Shown: positions 1,754 to 35,185 of the stretch, one piece after another
Position numbering within the stretch: position 1 is the first letter of the stretch
Layout: each line of letters opens with the position of its first letter
Assembly (NCBI GenBank): GCA_029858565.1
Contig: JAOUEV010000001.1
Location: forward strand, 32,001-96,000
DNA: 64,000 bases
From: Nitrospirota bacterium
GTDB taxonomy: Bacteria > Nitrospirota > UBA9217
Reading direction: 5' to 3'
Made by a program: the position numbers and the translations under genes
The notes under the pieces: model-generated
Seen by the model: the letters and a program-made list of their open reading frames with translations, nothing else
The model's database searches: none
Told to the model about the DNA's origin: nothing

Positions 1754-2475
1754 GGTTGCCACGATCCCAGGATATGCATGACTGCCTGCTGTGCCGCGCG
1801 GGCAGCCCGTGGTATGTCCCATCTGCTGAGATCCCGGTCCTCGACGATGTTGGAGATGCCGCGGACCTCGAGCCACGGCACATTGTGCAGTTCCGCAACC
1901 TGCGCCGCTGCCGCGCCCTCCATGTTCTCGCATAGGCCCTGATACCGTTCTTCGAGCTCACGCGCTCGTGCCGCGGTGCCCGTGCAGGTCGAAAGGGTGA
2001 TGAAGGGGCCCGCGTGCACAGTTACACTTGGCCCGCAGGACCGGAGCGCGGCGAGCGCCTGGTCCAGGACCGGGGCAGGCGCGGGGTACGTATTGAAGAT
2101 GGTCGAGTTCGTGGTCTTGAGCAGAGGGATCCCGATGAACTCTGTGTCCTTGAAACCATCATTGGTGAGCACGCCCTCATCTCCGGCGATCTCTTCCCGG
2201 GCAAGCACAACATCGCCGATCCTGGCTCCTGATGAGGGATACGCTCCACCCACGCCGAGTACGAAGAGCACGGCAGGAGCATAGCGGGTGATCATGATCG
2301 TTGCGCCATGAGCGGCATTGACCTTGCCCATTCCCGCCACACAGAGAACAACTTGTTTGCCCGCAAGCATTCCTTCAAAGACTGTCGTGGTGCCAATGGT
2401 CACTCTGTTGACGTTTTCCATGGACTGCCGGAGGATATCGGCTTCTGCATCAACGGAAGTGAGCAGCGCTATCAT
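1750..2475 (-). CDS. mqnB: Futalosine hydrolase (MTAN/PNP family)
   Basis: GMGKVNAA, GVGGAY, ENMEGAAAAQ and EVRGISN motifs; adjacent to mqnD. Confidence 0.9.
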   Translation of the reverse strand: MIALLTSVDAEADILRQSMENVNRVTIGTTTVFEGMLAGKQVVLCVAGMGKVNAAHGATIMITRYAPAVLFVLGVGGAYPSSGARIGDVVLAREEIAGDEGVLTNDGFKDTEFIGIPLLKTTNSTIFNTYPAPAPVLDQALAALRSCGPSVTVHAGPFITLSTCTGTAARARELEERYQGLCENMEGAAAAQVAELHNVPWLEVRGISNIVEDRDLSRWDIPRAARAAQQAVMHILGSWQP

Positions 2476-29821: not shown

Positions 29822-31379
29822 GAGTCTGTCGGACTTAGCAATCTGATCCGACGACTGTTTGAACCAATTTCTAGAATCATCAGCCTTATGATCGGTTCTC
29901 TTTGATCAAATATGGTTCTGATTTGTTCTTTCTTATCGATTCAACTCAAGGTATGCAGCCTTTTTAAGTTCCAGGCGATGCAAACGAGGTCCCATTCGCC
30001 TTGTACGGCTACGAAACCGCGCAGCAGGAACTGCCGGAAGCCCATAACCGCTTTGATGATGCCGAAGACCGGTTCCACCGTGCTCTTGCGTTTGGCATAG
30101 ACCTTTTTGCCTGCTTGAGTCCGGAGACGATGCTTCATCCTGGTGACCGCATCGGCATCAGGCGGCGGTGGCAACGGTTCACGGAACCGATCCAAGAGCG
30201 GCTGGTTATGCTGATCCCGGCCAAAAGCAAGGTACGGCGTAATCTTGTTCTTCTCGCAGGCACCGACGTTGGCTTCGCTGTAGAAACCGTTGTCGGTGAT
30301 AATTGCATCCACCGTGCCGAGTTCTTCGGGTAATGCAGCGAGGTTTTCGATTGTCGGTTCCACTTCGCGCTTATCGTTTGTCTGTTGGGTTACATGGCTG
30401 GCGACGATCATCATGGATTCGATATCAACACCAGCCTGAGCATTGTAAGCCTGTTCAAAGCCGCCGCCGGACTTCTTCATGATCCGGGATTCGCCGTCCG
30501 TCAGGTTGACCTGGTCTTTGCCTTGGATACCGGGTTCGGGAGGTTCCGGTTTTCGGCCACGAGACTTTTTGCCGGTTTGCTGTTCTTTTTCAGCGCGCTC
30601 GGCCAGCTTTTTATCATAGGCTTCTTTTTCCTGGGCAAAACGCTCTGCGGCCCGCCGTTCGATCTCGGCTTTGGCGTTGGCTATGGCCTTGAGACGCTCG
30701 GTCCGCCGGGATAGTTCTTCCGGGATGCTAATTCCATCCGGTAGATCAGCCTGATCAGCTGCTTCGGCCTGGCGGAGAAGCTCGGCAACTTCTGCCTTGA
30801 GCTGTTCTTCGAGTTTGCATGCGTGGGCATAGCTCAGGGCTTTATGCTTCGAGGCATTTGCCTTGACCTTGGTCCCGTCAAGACTGACAGTGCCCAGCTT
30901 CAAGACCCCCGCCTGTCCGGCGATCAGGAGGATCTGGACGAACAGCGGCTTGAGCTGCGACAGAAACCGCTTCCGGAAAACGGCGATAGTGTCATGATCC
31001 GGATGCGTATTTGCAGCAATGAATCGGAAGGCAACCGAATCATAGGTGCTCCGCTCCAGTTTCCGGCTGGAGAACACCCCAGTGGCGTATCCATAGAACA
31101 GAAGGGCCAGAAGCATCTCGGGATTATATGGCTGGGAACCGCGCCCCGCATATGCGGCTTTCAAAGAGCTGAGATCGAGCTGATCCAAGATCTCGACGAC
31201 GAATCGGGCCAGGTGATCTTCGGGCAGCCAGTCCTGAAGCGACGGCGGCAGCAAATAGAGTGTTGATTGATCGTAATTGATAAACTTTGCGCTCATTTCT
31301 GTTCAACCTCGCTACGTGCGATTGAATAGCTGAGCGGACTATAACATATTTGATTTAGTCGGGAAAGTCCGACAGACTC
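29822..31379 (-). mobile_element. IS1182-family insertion sequence, intact
   Basis: Perfect terminal inverted repeats GAGTCTGTCGGACTT / AAGTCCGACAGACTC, flanked by CTAG on both sides (29818-29821 and 31380-31383). Confidence 0.92.
29941..31296 (-). CDS. IS1182-family DDE transposase
   Basis: SSRKLE, PDHDTIA.FR, DGTKVKANAS, YNAQ, DNGF and VEPVFGIIK motifs. Confidence 0.95.
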   Translation of the reverse strand: MSAKFINYDQSTLYLLPPSLQDWLPEDHLARFVVEILDQLDLSSLKAAYAGRGSQPYNPEMLLALLFYGYATGVFSSRKLERSTYDSVAFRFIAANTHPDHDTIAVFRKRFLSQLKPLFVQILLIAGQAGVLKLGTVSLDGTKVKANASKHKALSYAHACKLEEQLKAEVAELLRQAEAADQADLPDGISIPEELSRRTERLKAIANAKAEIERRAAERFAQEKEAYDKKLAERAEKEQQTGKKSRGRKPEPPEPGIQGKDQVNLTDGESRIMKKSGGGFEQAYNAQAGVDIESMMIVASHVTQQTNDKREVEPTIENLAALPEELGTVDAIITDNGFYSEANVGACEKNKITPYLAFGRDQHNQPLLDRFREPLPPPPDADAVTRMKHRLRTQAGKKVYAKRKSTVEPVFGIIKAVMGFRQFLLRGFVAVQGEWDLVCIAWNLKRLHTLS

Positions 31380-32741: not shown

Positions 32742-33198
32742 GGGTCCGATCGTTGCGAAGACATTTTGTCAATGATTGTCGGCCACTACTATACCATAAA
32801 TGCTGGAGACGACAAAGGGAAAAGAACAGGTGCGATCGTCATCAGCGATACAGACTGTTGACTAAAGTGACTATAAGGACAGATACGCTCCCCTATTGTT
32901 GTTCCGTTAAATGGTGTGATGTCATGCTCATTCCGTGAAAGGACGATGTGCTTCCTGCCGGAGCGCACAGCGGAGTTTGGCGGGAAAAACAGCATTTTCT
33001 CGTCTACGATCGCCAGGATCATGCGATTCGGCCGCGATGAAGTGAAAAAGCGCATAATAATTTCATGATGAAGAGAACAAGTATAATTGTGAATAATCCG
33101 CATAAAACAAAAAAATAAAGTACACATTTTAATTGGTGTTGATATAACTGTTGATAAATTGTCTAACATGAGGAAAGATAATTTTTTATTTTTTTCTG

Positions 33199-33245
33199 TT
33201 GACAAATTATGAACTCTTGTTGTATATTTGTCCACGAGGTGAACA
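33199..33245 (+). promoter_or_regulatory. Promoter with operator-like palindrome upstream of the wHTH-MNT gene
   Basis: TTGACA-18 bp-TATATT; TGTCCAC-gag-GTGAACA inverted repeat (33229-33245) over the predicted +1 and RBS. Confidence 0.6.
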
Positions 33246-33249
33246 GAAG

Positions 33250-33816
33250 TTGCTATCGAAACTCTTCTCTTCAACGAGAGCCGAACTTCTGAGCCTGTTC
33301 TTTAACAATCCGGACGAGAAGTTCTACCTCAGGGAGATCGCCCGGCATATCGGCAAGGACGCGGCCGGTATCAAGCGGGAGCTCGATACCCTGGTGAAGA
33401 TCGGGCTCCTGGCCTGGGAAAAGCGGGGAGTGCAGAAGTACTACTTCGCAGACAAAGGCTCCCCGATCTTCTCGGAAATGAAAGGCCTGATCTTCAAGAC
33501 CACGGGCGTGCAGGGCGCGATCAAGGCGGCGCTCACGAGGCTCAAAGGGGTGCAGGCGGCATTCATCTACGGCTCCTTTGCCAAGGGTTCGGAAAAAGAG
33601 GACAGCAATATCAACCTGATGGTGATCGGCCAGGTGAACATCACGGAACTGAACGACGTGGTGGTAGGGCTCGAAGAGAAGCTGAAACGCGAGATCGACT
33701 ACCTGGCCTTTGACGAGCAGGAATACCGGAAACGGAAGGAAACGAAGGACCCCTTCATCCGGGAGATCGTGAAAGGAAAAAAGCTCATCCTGCTGGGCAA
33801 GGACGATGACGTATGA
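33250..33816 (+). CDS. wHTH plus minimal nucleotidyltransferase (MNT) domain protein with degenerate catalytic motif
   Basis: LFSSTRAELL...YLREIAR...IKREL wHTH; IYGSFAKGSEKEDSNINL in place of GSx10DxD; TTG start after GAGGT. Confidence 0.85.
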   Translation: MLSKLFSSTRAELLSLFFNNPDEKFYLREIARHIGKDAAGIKRELDTLVKIGLLAWEKRGVQKYYFADKGSPIFSEMKGLIFKTTGVQGAIKAALTRLKGVQAAFIYGSFAKGSEKEDSNINLMVIGQVNITELNDVVVGLEEKLKREIDYLAFDEQEYRKRKETKDPFIREIVKGKKLILLGKDDDV

Positions 33817-34288
33817 AGCGCTCCAAGAGATGGGGCTGGAGGAGCGGGCACCTGAGATCGCCGAAGTAATGGGTCTGATGATACGGGCCGAGCGCGATCT
33901 GGCAACGGCCCGGTTGCTCCAGGACAAGGACGAGGAATGGTCCTACGCCGCGGCGTATCAAGCCATGGCCCGGTCCGGGAGAGCGCTCATCATGTCCGAG
34001 GGATACCGGCCCAAGGGGCCCCGGAGCAGGGATACCCATAAGACAGTAGTGACCGCTTCGGGAGTGATCCTGGGCGATAAGTTCAAGAGCCTGATCAATA
34101 AGTTCGACCGGATGCGCAGGAAGTACCAGAACTTCATGGTCGAGAGCGTAAGCATGGTATCCCGTTATGAAGCAGGGCAGGCCATCAAGGACGCGGAAGA
34201 GCTCTTCGGGATCGTAAGTTCACGGCTGCGGGAAAAGTACTCGCAGATGTCATTGCTGAACGATGTACCTCAGCTCGTATCCAGATAA
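33806..34288 (+). CDS. HEPN-domain protein with degenerate RNase motif
   Basis: AERDL..A, AYQAM...ALI..EGYRP, HKTVV, FDRMRRK(YQNFMVE); overlaps the MNT gene. Confidence 0.8.
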   Translation: MTYEALQEMGLEERAPEIAEVMGLMIRAERDLATARLLQDKDEEWSYAAAYQAMARSGRALIMSEGYRPKGPRSRDTHKTVVTASGVILGDKFKSLINKFDRMRRKYQNFMVESVSMVSRYEAGQAIKDAEELFGIVSSRLREKYSQMSLLNDVPQLVSR

Positions 34289-34333
34289 AGGCCGCTTGAA
34301 TCGAATGCGGTGACCGAAAGGGGGTGGACAACA

Positions 34334-34393
34334 ATGCCGGCGAAGAAGAAAGCTGCCAAGAAGAAGGCGAAGAAAAAGGCGAAGAAAAAGTAG
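34334..34393 (+). CDS. 19-aa Lys/Ala-rich micropeptide MPAKKKAAKKKAKKKAKKK
   Basis: Strong RBS AAGGGGGTG, ATG...TAG, followed by a hairpin; paralog 195 bp downstream. Confidence 0.75.
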   Translation: MPAKKKAAKKKAKKKAKKK

Positions 34394-34423
34394 TCTTTGA
34401 ATACATTGCCCCGAGATGGGGAA

Positions 34424-34447
34424 ACGCCGGGGGATCTCCCCCGGCGT
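34424..34447 (+). terminator. GC-rich hairpin after the first micropeptide
   Basis: ACGCCGGGGG-atct-CCCCCGGCGT followed by a weak AT-rich tail. Confidence 0.6.
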
Positions 34448-34528
34448 CATTTAATCAATAATTCGTCCGCAGTCGAGGACGTTTTCCAGGGCTTCGCCCC
34501 TAACCTAAGCAAGGAAGGAGATCGAAAC

Positions 34529-34588
34529 ATGCCCGCAAAGAAAAAAGCCCCGGCCAAGAAGGCCAAGAAGACCACGAAGAAGAAATAG
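34529..34588 (+). CDS. 19-aa Lys/Ala-rich micropeptide MPAKKKAPAKKAKKTTKKK
   Basis: RBS AAGGAG, ATG...TAG; same MPAKKKA start as the first copy but with synonymous codon differences. Confidence 0.75.
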   Translation: MPAKKKAPAKKAKKTTKKK

Positions 34589-34638
34589 CTGTGCCGAGCC
34601 TGTCAGGACGGCCATGCTCAAAAGCCATGAATATGGTT

Positions 34639-34672
34639 ACCACGAAGGACGTCTTCGTGGTTTTGTTTTTTT
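34639..34672 (+). terminator. Intrinsic terminator after the second micropeptide
   Basis: ACCACGAAG-gacgt-CTTCGTGGT followed by TTTGTTTTTTT. Confidence 0.85.
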
Positions 34673-34846
34673 ATGGGAAGAAGAAAGAGCGGTTCAGAAC
34701 ACCCGTCGAGCCGAACACACGTTGTGGTACGGAGACGGACGTGAACGTGCTCTTCTGTCCGGTGAGGTCTTCGCGCGGATGATCTGACCTCCCCACATTT
34801 GAAATATCCGGCCGCTTGCTCTATAATGCGGTCGGATGGCTGAATT

Positions 34847-35185
34847 ATGGCAAGACGAAACTATGTACGGACCCCCCGCAGTCTGAAACGCACGGCCGGC
34901 AGGAAGAAACTGGTGATTGCCGCGGCCGTGGTAGCCGGGATTGCTTTGCTCTGGTCCCTGGTAATGGGAGAGATGGGGCTGGTGAAGTACTTGCGGATGA
35001 AGAACCAGGAGAATGCCCTGCGCGTCGAGATCGATCACCTGACCCAGGACAACCGCCGCCTGCTGCAGGAGGTCAAGGCGCTCAAGTACGATGCCGCGTA
35101 TCTGGAGCGTCTTGCCCGGGACAAGATCGGCCTCGCCCGTCCCGGCGAGATCGTCTATTATTATGGCGATGTGGAGGTGCGGTAA
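34847..35185 (+). CDS. ftsB: Septum formation initiator FtsB/DivIC
   Basis: TM helix, coiled coil, LERLARDKIGLARPGEIVY. Confidence 0.88.
   Translation: MARRNYVRTPRSLKRTAGRKKLVIAAAVVAGIALLWSLVMGEMGLVKYLRMKNQENALRVEIDHLTQDNRRLLQEVKALKYDAAYLERLARDKIGLARPGEIVYYYGDVEVR

Follow-up and report, generated by a model that had tools for sequence, protein, structure and literature searches.

The closest described systems to the locus reported here are MntA/HepT, a type VII toxin-antitoxin (TA) system, and the PADLOC candidate defence system PDC-M05, in which a winged helix-turn-helix (wHTH)-nucleotidyltransferase is paired with a HEPN protein. In PMC12988326, PDC-M05 is given as a nucleotidyltransferase plus a HEPN protein that is TA-like and whose antiviral role is unconfirmed. 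The locus lies in a 64,000-nucleotide stretch of contig JAOUEV010000001.1 from a Nitrospirota bacterium (assembly GCA_029858565.1), which is referred to in full as the window and whose coordinates are used throughout. It encodes a wHTH protein with a degenerate minimal nucleotidyltransferase (MNT) domain, a HEPN-domain partner and two polylysine micro-open reading frames (micro-ORFs), and has the same two folds in the same order and in overlapping genes as MntA/HepT and PDC-M05. It differs from both in that the DxD motif and the HEPN signature are lost, the HEPN protein is dispensable and inheritance is vertical, within core synteny. In addition, the module here invariably comes with one to three polylysine micro-ORFs, whereas the canonical loci examined carry them in 0/29 cases. 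The MNT/HEPN kind of system is thus known, and what is new is the lost catalysis, the vertical fixation and the added, obligatory polylysine micro-ORF component.

Bacterial H1-like lysine-rich proteins include Hc1 and Hc2 of Chlamydia, AlgP of Pseudomonas and the tails of mycobacterial HupB, and they have low-complexity repeats of K, A, P and T (AKKK, PAKKA) in common with the peptides described here. The 19-residue peptides of the window resemble a histone H1 tail, and the longer members of a clade that lacks HEPN (54 and 74 aa) resemble H1-type repeat proteins. Unlike the H1-like proteins, however, the peptides are mostly 12-30 aa long, possess no globular domain and occur as tandem copies behind a dedicated regulator. 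The modelled N-terminal fold of that regulator is like that of the ArsR/SmtB autorepressors, and a dyad lies over its own promoter; it differs from them in that an MNT-fold domain is fused to the wHTH in place of the usual dimerisation helix. A literature search conducted mainly at the level of titles and abstracts found no link of MNT/HEPN or wHTH-nucleotidyltransferases to lysine-rich small ORFs. The same search found no description of this layout, which agrees, at that level of coverage, with the original prediction made from the DNA of the window that the layout is undescribed.

Linkage and conservation of the polylysine micro-ORFs

A DNA search over 41 relatives recovered the module in 23 of 24 same-family genomes, at 71-84% identity over ~1300 nt, and matched it weakly in both genomes of a second family, f6 (2/2). 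K-rich micro-ORFs are present directly 3' of HEPN in 24/24 loci (22 from the window's family and two from f6), each behind GAAAGGGGGTG. An MNT-alignment scan of one public genome per species returned 77 loci, the record titles of which are those of Nitrospirota and Methylomirabilota (NC10); this set partly overlaps the 24 family and f6 loci, some contigs being identical, and MNT identity falls to 43% within it. HEPN is present in 73/77 loci, the other four ending at a contig end, and one to three polylysine ORFs of 12-30 aa lie within 900 nt downstream of HEPN in 72 of these 73. The exception, L072, has only 67 nt of sequence left past HEPN, and the count among loci with at least 145 nt after HEPN is 72/72. 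As background, the same filter applied to the rest of these ~6.5-kb loci gave one trivial ORF on the plus strand and none on the minus strand.

At E<=1e-5, the PDC-M05A model has matches in 258 of 401 Nitrospirota genomes, and the loci taken further comprise 20 additional places and two given by the search. One subclade, with MNT proteins 38-45% identical, lacks HEPN in 14/14 loci and still possesses a K-rich ORF just past the MNT stop in all 14; HEPN is an optional, not an obligatory, part of the module. The K-rich ORF begins 40-76 nt after the MNT gene in the 11 loci measured and lies within ~120 nt in the other three. Three of the 14 ORFs were missed by the initial filter and were spotted by eye. 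These ORFs range from 13 to 74 aa, the longest including those of L139 (54 aa) and L135 (74 aa). The HEPN-bearing loci L148 and L149 also carry polylysine (polyK) ORFs, whereas paralogues with an intact GS...S-D-[IV]-D motif carry them in 0/6 cases. In Methylomirabilota, 55 of 151 genomes match PDC-M05A at 1e-20 (53/149 without G450 and G461, two genomes flagged as unpublished), and 30 loci were returned, of which L174 (from G461) was left out. PolyK ORFs are present in 0/23 canonical loci, 18 of which fit the S-D-[IV]-D pattern and five of which are unmatched by it and uninspected, and in 6/6 loci of the other clade, with one to three each. The link between regulator and peptides made in the original prediction therefore holds in a neighbourhood survey, with linkage in 72/72, 14/14 and 6/6 loci against 0/29 canonical ones; the refuting outcome named there, unlinked peptides and regulators, was not seen in any relative of the clade with enough sequence. 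The regulator genes and the polylysine micro-ORFs are one conserved unit, and their link is not due to chance.

Every locus with enough space for the micro-ORFs has them intact, and the length differences among them are whole numbers of codons. The 18-aa type-2 peptide is encoded by 20 distinct DNA sequences that specify five peptides, with diversities of 0.106, 0.039 and 0.359 at codon positions 1, 2 and 3, and the other four equal-length groups exhibit a 3-fold to 6-fold excess at the third position. Third codon positions are overall 3-9 times more variable than first and second positions, which indicates that selection acts on the micro-ORFs as peptides. Two paralogous peptide types, one of AKKK repeats and the other of APAKKAKKTTKKK, are kept distinct across the family, and an extended Shine-Dalgarno sequence, GAAAGGGGGTGGA, is kept before every peptide ORF.

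Lys codon choice is ordinary, with AAG at 0.72 in 132 peptide ORFs compared with 0.68 in the genome's long ORFs. The longest runs of A mostly measure 5-6 nt, and the idea that slippery poly-A tracks are selected for was rejected on these grounds. The stop codons of the 132 peptide ORFs of L027-L103 are TAG in 80 cases, TAA in 52 and TGA in none. Just this pattern would result if the Lys codons AAG and AAA gave rise to ORF ends through a single change, and it would also imply reliance on RF1-type recognition for termination in most cases. The 19-aa peptides of the window are too short for family-model tools, and longer relatives were therefore scored: the HC2 family models (Pfam PF07382 and NCBIfam NF038052) gave best E-values of 0.012-9.3 and 6-16 bits on L134, L139 and L145, against cut-offs of 40 and 135 bits, and no match at all on L135; for HC2 the E-values were 0.04-5.8.

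Further lysine-rich sequences were noted during the survey. In L079-L081, L082-L083, L086-L087 and L181, which belong to family f6 and part of Methylomirabilota, the first peptide after HEPN ends in a conserved C-terminal cysteine (...KKGKC, ...KKKKRC, ...GGRGC, ...GKGC); no such peptide is present in the window's family. The window's 3.9-Mb genome contains only one further polylysine micro-ORF led by a Shine-Dalgarno site, MACGTKGCGIKKAAKKKTAKKAVKKAAKKKAKKK, which lies outside the window on contig C116 (~2364-2465, minus strand) and is flanked by ORFs that resemble ribF and tyrS, as judged by eye from the translations, with its own terminator, a Cys-containing start motif and no MNT nearby. 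Just past the end of the window, contig C14 encodes at 96226-96867 a 213-aa ORF with a long Lys/Ala-rich, H1-like C-terminal tail (...KKAAKKAVKKTVKKAAAKPKKKTAAKKTKKKR), so that the genome has polycationic proteins of two kinds.

The degenerate regulator pair and its inheritance

The first regulator gene matches Pfam Polbeta (PF18765) over residues 108-197 of its longer ORF (3e-9), and its N-terminus matches an HVO_A0114-type wHTH in Pfam (3.8e-6) with 27.0 bits, slightly below the cut-off of 27.6 bits; the NCBIfam ArsR models also score below their cut-offs on the wHTH. An AlphaFold2 model of the protein has a mean pLDDT of 84.8. Foldseek aligned its N-terminal ~85 residues with SqrR (6o8k, 3e-4), SmtB (1r22), HlyU and CzrA, and its C-terminal half with the MNT antitoxins 8xeo, MntA (7bxo) and HI0073, and among solved structures it returned none that shares the two-domain wHTH-MNT architecture. 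The names on record read only 'predicted nucleotidyltransferase', 'hypothetical protein' or 'predicted transcriptional regulator'.

The catalytic motif of nucleotidyltransferases is GSx(n)[DE]x[DE]. In the window this motif reads GS..SNINL, where canonical paralogues possess S-D-[IV]-D, and an alignment to PDB 2rff places N at both positions of D. The motif varies among the polyK-linked clades, being SNINL in the window's family and SDVNL, SDINL, GTIDL, GPIRL, AIDV/AIDL, PLEL or PYAEGED..VDL elsewhere. The claim that the MNT has an NxN motif and is catalytically dead thus agrees with the alignments, in which DxD is NxN in the window and is degenerate in varied ways across the clade, and the protein is probably inactive. 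Decay of the motif along different paths in different lineages suggests that selection on catalysis was relaxed once function had changed a single time. In every clade the active-site loop, though degenerate, is acidic, and the degenerate MNT proteins are basic (pI 9.2-9.9). A role of the peptide as a ligand of the regulator was disfavoured by this basic charge only, and the acidic loop leaves the idea standing.

The HEPN partner matches Pfam PF05168 (4.7e-9). Canonical paralogues possess a helix signature KR[NH]xx[IT]Y, which is replaced by KYQNFMV in the window's family and by RRAQALD or KGQHFLE in other polyK-linked HEPN proteins. The textbook RNase motif of HEPN proteins is Rx4-6H, and it is absent from the homologous helix of the window's HEPN. 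A formal Rx4H fit elsewhere in the protein, RSRDTH, was rejected as a catalytic motif: it lies in a family-specific insertion of three residues, and its H is Q in L020. The original prediction of a dead regulator pair is therefore upheld for the MNT, which is degenerate; the HEPN has lost the canonical signature, yet its death is less firm, and it is not an obligatory member of the pair.

A maximum-likelihood tree of 43 MNT proteins separates 37 polyK-linked from six canonical sequences with support of 96/91, and the HEPN-less subclade within this tree has support of 100/98. On this tree the polyK-linked clade has a single origin. The order divergent DEAD-box helicase, MNT, HEPN is present in 22/22 family loci, and ftsB and GH57 follow in 15/22 within the stretch fetched; identities across genera in the family loci are 81-93% for MNT, 64-90% for HEPN and 53-64% for FtsB. 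In the HEPN-less clade the module is convergent with lpxC in 11/11 loci scanned, followed by pmbA in 10/11, and in family f6 it is likewise convergent with lpxC. Downstream of the NC10 module, lptC is present in 2/4 loci. The patchy, mobile spread typical of TA and defence modules was not found, given the 22/22 synteny, single origin and core-gene context. Vertical inheritance in core synteny, together with lineage-specific decay of the motif, argues for a domesticated module and not for an active TA or defence system. This inheritance also fits the proposal that a former TA pair may have been repurposed.

A recurring feature of these neighbourhoods is the presence of outer-membrane lipid genes: in L134-L146, L152 and L024 lpxC is convergent, with pmbA/tldD beyond it in most, and two NC10 loci have lptC or lptA.

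It carries next to no probability that the locus is an ordinary active MNT/HEPN pair, type VII-like or of the PDC-M05 kind, that serves as a TA or phage-defence system and to which the small ORFs are incidental. PADLOC does score the MNT as PDC-M05A (4e-54) and the HEPN as PDC-M05B (4e-17), and the two genes overlap as in the described pairs. However, the DxD motif is NxN in the window and otherwise degenerate across the clade, the HEPN has lost its signature, the locus shows no mobility, and the ORFs are under purifying selection; the counts of polyK-linked and canonical loci given above largely refute this explanation.

Anatomy, promoter and transcript of the unit

The features of the unit are listed in Table 1. 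All the components named in the original prediction are present, namely the AT-rich region, the promoter, the wHTH-MNT and HEPN genes, the two peptide ORFs and the final terminator. No terminator was called between HEPN and peptide 1, as had also been claimed, though a hairpin without a T-run sits there.

Table 1. Features of the wHTH-MNT/HEPN/polylysine unit and the adjoining ftsB gene (window coordinates)
Feature	Position	Strand	Evidence or remark
AT-rich region 5' of promoter	33040..33198	.	A/T tract abuts -35; relatives AT-rich too
Sigma-70-type promoter TTGACA-18-TATATT	33199..33228	+	11/12 consensus matches
Candidate operator, inverted repeat GTTGACAAAT (33198-33207) / ATTTGTCCAC (33226-33235)	33198..33235	.	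18 nt between arms
ArsR-type wHTH + degenerate MNT, TTG start	33250..33816	+	Pfam, PADLOC, AlphaFold2/Foldseek
HEPN-domain partner	33806..34288	+	PF05168, PDC-M05B
Hairpin GCCGC-N11-GCGGT, no T-run, between HEPN stop and Shine-Dalgarno of peptide 1	34291..34311	+	
Extended Shine-Dalgarno GAAAGGGGGTGG of peptide 1	34316..34327	+	Precedes peptide ORFs in all clades
Polylysine micro-ORF 1, 19 aa, MPAKKKAAKKKAKKKAKKK	34334..34393	+	ORF list, relatives, coding signature
GC-rich hairpin 3' of peptide 1, short T-run	34424..34447	+	Inverted repeat; compensatory changes
Shine-Dalgarno AAGGAAGGAG of peptide 2	34511..34520	+	Relatives have GAAAGGGGGTGA at same place
Polylysine micro-ORF 2, 19 aa, MPAKKKAPAKKAKKTTKKK	34529..34588	+	ORF list, relatives, coding signature
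Intrinsic terminator closing the unit	34639..34671	+	10-pair stem (34639-34661), then T-run TTTGTTTTTT
ftsB	34847-35185		DivIC 1e-15; own promoter TTGAAA-17-TATAAT at 34799-34827; terminator separates ftsB from module

The GC content is 0.315 over 33000-33299, compared with ~0.57 in the surroundings and 0.570 in the whole genome. The MNT and HEPN genes overlap by 11 nt, as read from the sequence, the HEPN stop is separated from the ATG of peptide 1 by 45 nt, and the two micro-ORFs share 73% DNA identity. A search of the whole 64-kb window with Rfam at the gathering threshold gave no matches. Upstream of the MNT gene lies the divergent DEAD-box helicase gene, and just past it a DDE transposase ORF (DDE_Tnp_1, DUF772; 29941-31296, minus strand) represents a mobile element beside an otherwise conserved core locus. 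The proposed association with a neighbouring cell-division gene stands in the window, where ftsB is present, and fails as a general link: ftsB is the neighbour in one family only, and it is transcribed from a promoter of its own beyond an intervening terminator.

The promoter core TTGACA...TGTTGTATA is kept in the polyK-linked clades. In the dyad formed by the -35 arm and the arm following the -10 element, 8 or more of the 10 positions are complementary in 49 of the 78 distinct promoters of these clades, whereas shuffling gave such a score in 25 of 3900 cases. The dyad is present in clades outside the window's family as well (L078, L082, L093, L098 and L149), where its arms persist in other letters, for example GTTGACAAGT / TCTTTTCAAC. 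This dyad is a candidate operator for a dimeric wHTH protein, the binding of which would occlude RNA polymerase. A dyad that brackets the promoter is as expected for an autoregulatory circuit, and to this extent the autoregulation suggested earlier is plausible. The promoters of canonical paralogues also carry palindromes.

The operator proposed in the original prediction was a different palindrome, TGTCCAC-N3-GTGAACA. It is present at 33229-33245, over the ribosome-binding site, but an operator role is not borne out: its right arm is the Shine-Dalgarno site of the MNT gene (GAGGTGA), insertions lie between the two arms in the relatives L004, L012 and L014, and TTTGTCCAC pairs with GTTGACAAA of the -35 region instead of the Shine-Dalgarno site. 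Similarly, the GTGGACA sequence at 34324-34330 exists, but it is part of the extended Shine-Dalgarno sequence of peptide 1 and not a matching half-site; this 7-mer has 12 occurrences in the window, where 6.1 +/- 2.9 would be expected. Long-range RNA pairing of UGUCCAC in the 5' untranslated region with GUGGACA before peptide 1 was rejected, as relatives break the pairing without compensation. A second conserved element, TTGATAAATTGTCTAAC, is present at 33140-33160 of the window and in relatives. It lies in the family's AT-rich region, ~90 nt before the MNT gene begins, and may represent another promoter or an additional binding site.

Hairpins were compared in 37 of the 52 distinct stretches available. 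The stem of the GCCGC-loop-GCGGT hairpin is invariant in 37/37 aligned relatives, with a loop that varies in sequence and length; it exhibits no covariation and its support is weak. In the hairpin 3' of peptide 1, five of nine pairs have compensatory changes among the 37 relatives, and this hairpin could be a partial terminator or a stabiliser of the mRNA.

Contigs from RNA libraries (four runs from three studies) begin at 33242, 33243 and 33253 and cover both genes, and four contigs bridge HEPN and peptide 1 (33889-34366, 34176-34412, 34223-34362 and 34265-34362). No RNA contig lies upstream of 33229 or extends past ~34615. These data are contigs and not reads, and DNA carry-over is possible, so that they give only a weak hint of a single transcription unit spanning ~33240-34660. 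RNA depth is 10-40x higher over the peptide ORFs, a value that sums contigs of other organisms on low-complexity sequence and was not used; the word shares of the RNA runs are small (0.04-0.14) and were not used to assign a habitat.

The position of the micro-ORFs within the unit bears on whether they act in cis, by sensing Lys-tRNA supply or ribosome stalling and so controlling the fate of the mRNA or of downstream genes such as ftsB, in the manner of leader peptides. The dense runs of Lys codons and the hairpins that adjoin each ORF are in keeping with such a role. In leader-peptide attenuators, however, the short ORF lies upstream of the regulated gene and is combined with alternative terminator and antiterminator structures, whereas here the ORFs come last in the unit, with terminators and the separate promoter of ftsB (34799-34827) beyond them; the ORFs are therefore not leader peptides. 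Moreover, the downstream genes differ among clades or are convergent (lpxC), the choice of Lys codons is ordinary, and the two paralogous peptide types keep distinct sequences, and a cis-acting role is considered very unlikely.

Proposed role of the module

At about even confidence, the module is read as a domesticated MNT/HEPN autorepressor that sets the dose of polycationic peptides acting on polyanions, most likely DNA or the nucleoid. A strong promoter bracketed by an inverted repeat would drive an old, vertically inherited operon, in which the 11-nt overlap of the two regulator genes suggests translational coupling. The pair is likely to descend from a PDC-M05-type MNT/HEPN TA module and may, through domestication, have become an autorepressor whose binding site is the dyad over the -35 element and the start site. 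Autorepression would then set the dose of the peptides, which are predicted to be made in large amounts from near-perfect Shine-Dalgarno sites and hairpin-flanked ORFs and to engage, as polycations, the polyanions of the cell, among which DNA or the nucleoid is the likeliest target.

Several observations weigh against this reading. L082 is polyK-linked and retains DID, and catalysis may therefore persist in some members. Canonical paralogues carry Y and not H at the place of the Rx4-6H motif, which makes a dead HEPN less firm than a dead MNT. Most of the 78 promoters come from one family and are not independent. An inner dyad around the -10 element is perfect in some NC10 loci (CCTTTGATG-N9-CATCAAAGG) and has only 5/7 complementary positions in the window; across promoters, at least 6/7 are complementary in 16/78, against 221/3900 shuffles, which is a modest excess. 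The RNA contigs do not prove a single transcript, as transcription from within the unit or RNA processing, at a site near 34235-34290, would fit them too. The peptides match no curated family, as scored on the longer relatives. Finally, a polyanion such as DNA is the most plausible target of the peptides when judged from composition alone, by which RNA, ribosomes, polyphosphate and the envelope are conceivable as well.

The dyad, the order of the genes and their ancestry also bear on the idea that the polylysine peptides are toxins, as DNA-condensing or membrane-damaging polycations, and that the wHTH-MNT is their repressor or antitoxin, so that a new kind of TA system would have been built from an old one. 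The order of a DNA-binding regulator followed by a small effector is type II-like, with dyad symmetry over the promoter, the family of origin, PDC-M05, is TA-like, and HEPN was lost in one subclade while the peptide stayed. This idea is nevertheless improbable: the module has been passed on vertically within core synteny in two phyla and is the sole strong PDC-M05A match in the window's genome, duplicated peptide ORFs with near-perfect Shine-Dalgarno sites are unexpected for a toxin, and the basic character of the degenerate MNT disfavours neutralisation of a polycation by direct binding.

A low probability is likewise assigned to the peptides being ribosome- or RNA-associated micro-proteins, the supply of which the regulator couples to growth. 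Very basic small ribosomal proteins include bS22, bL37 and eL41, and the extreme basicity of the peptides, their strong Shine-Dalgarno sites and their compact, hairpin-flanked mRNA units would suit such a function, as would the divergent DEAD-box helicase neighbour in the window's family. No helicase neighbour is present in the other clades, however, and a length of 12-74 aa with a copy number of one to three is unlike a protein for a fixed ribosomal site.

The domesticated-autorepressor reading can be taken further, in a form that is speculative and thought rather unlikely. The polylysine peptides of 12-30 residues would then be minimal bacterial micro-proteins of a new 'protamine/H1-tail' class, with a role either in compacting or coating the nucleoid or in condensates formed with RNA or polyphosphate, and the wHTH-MNT/HEPN pair, with its AT-rich, dyad-bracketed promoter, would be a homeostat that reads the free polycation load and adjusts the dose. 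If true, this would be a chromatin-like dosage circuit that predates the divergence of Nitrospirota and Methylomirabilota and is invisible to gene callers.

PADLOC still scores this clade as PDC-M05, and censuses of defence systems in Nitrospirota and Methylomirabilota therefore probably count these loci as immunity genes. The module would be a clear case of a TA/defence-type module turned housekeeping regulator, the catalytic residues of which decayed independently. It also reveals conserved, selected micro-proteins of 12-30 residues; ORFs of ~60 nt are shorter than gene callers usually accept, and micro-proteins of this size are thus probably missed by automatic annotation. The unit provides a testable handle on nucleoid and polyanion biology in two mostly uncultured, environmentally important phyla, Nitrospirota and the methane-oxidising Methylomirabilota.

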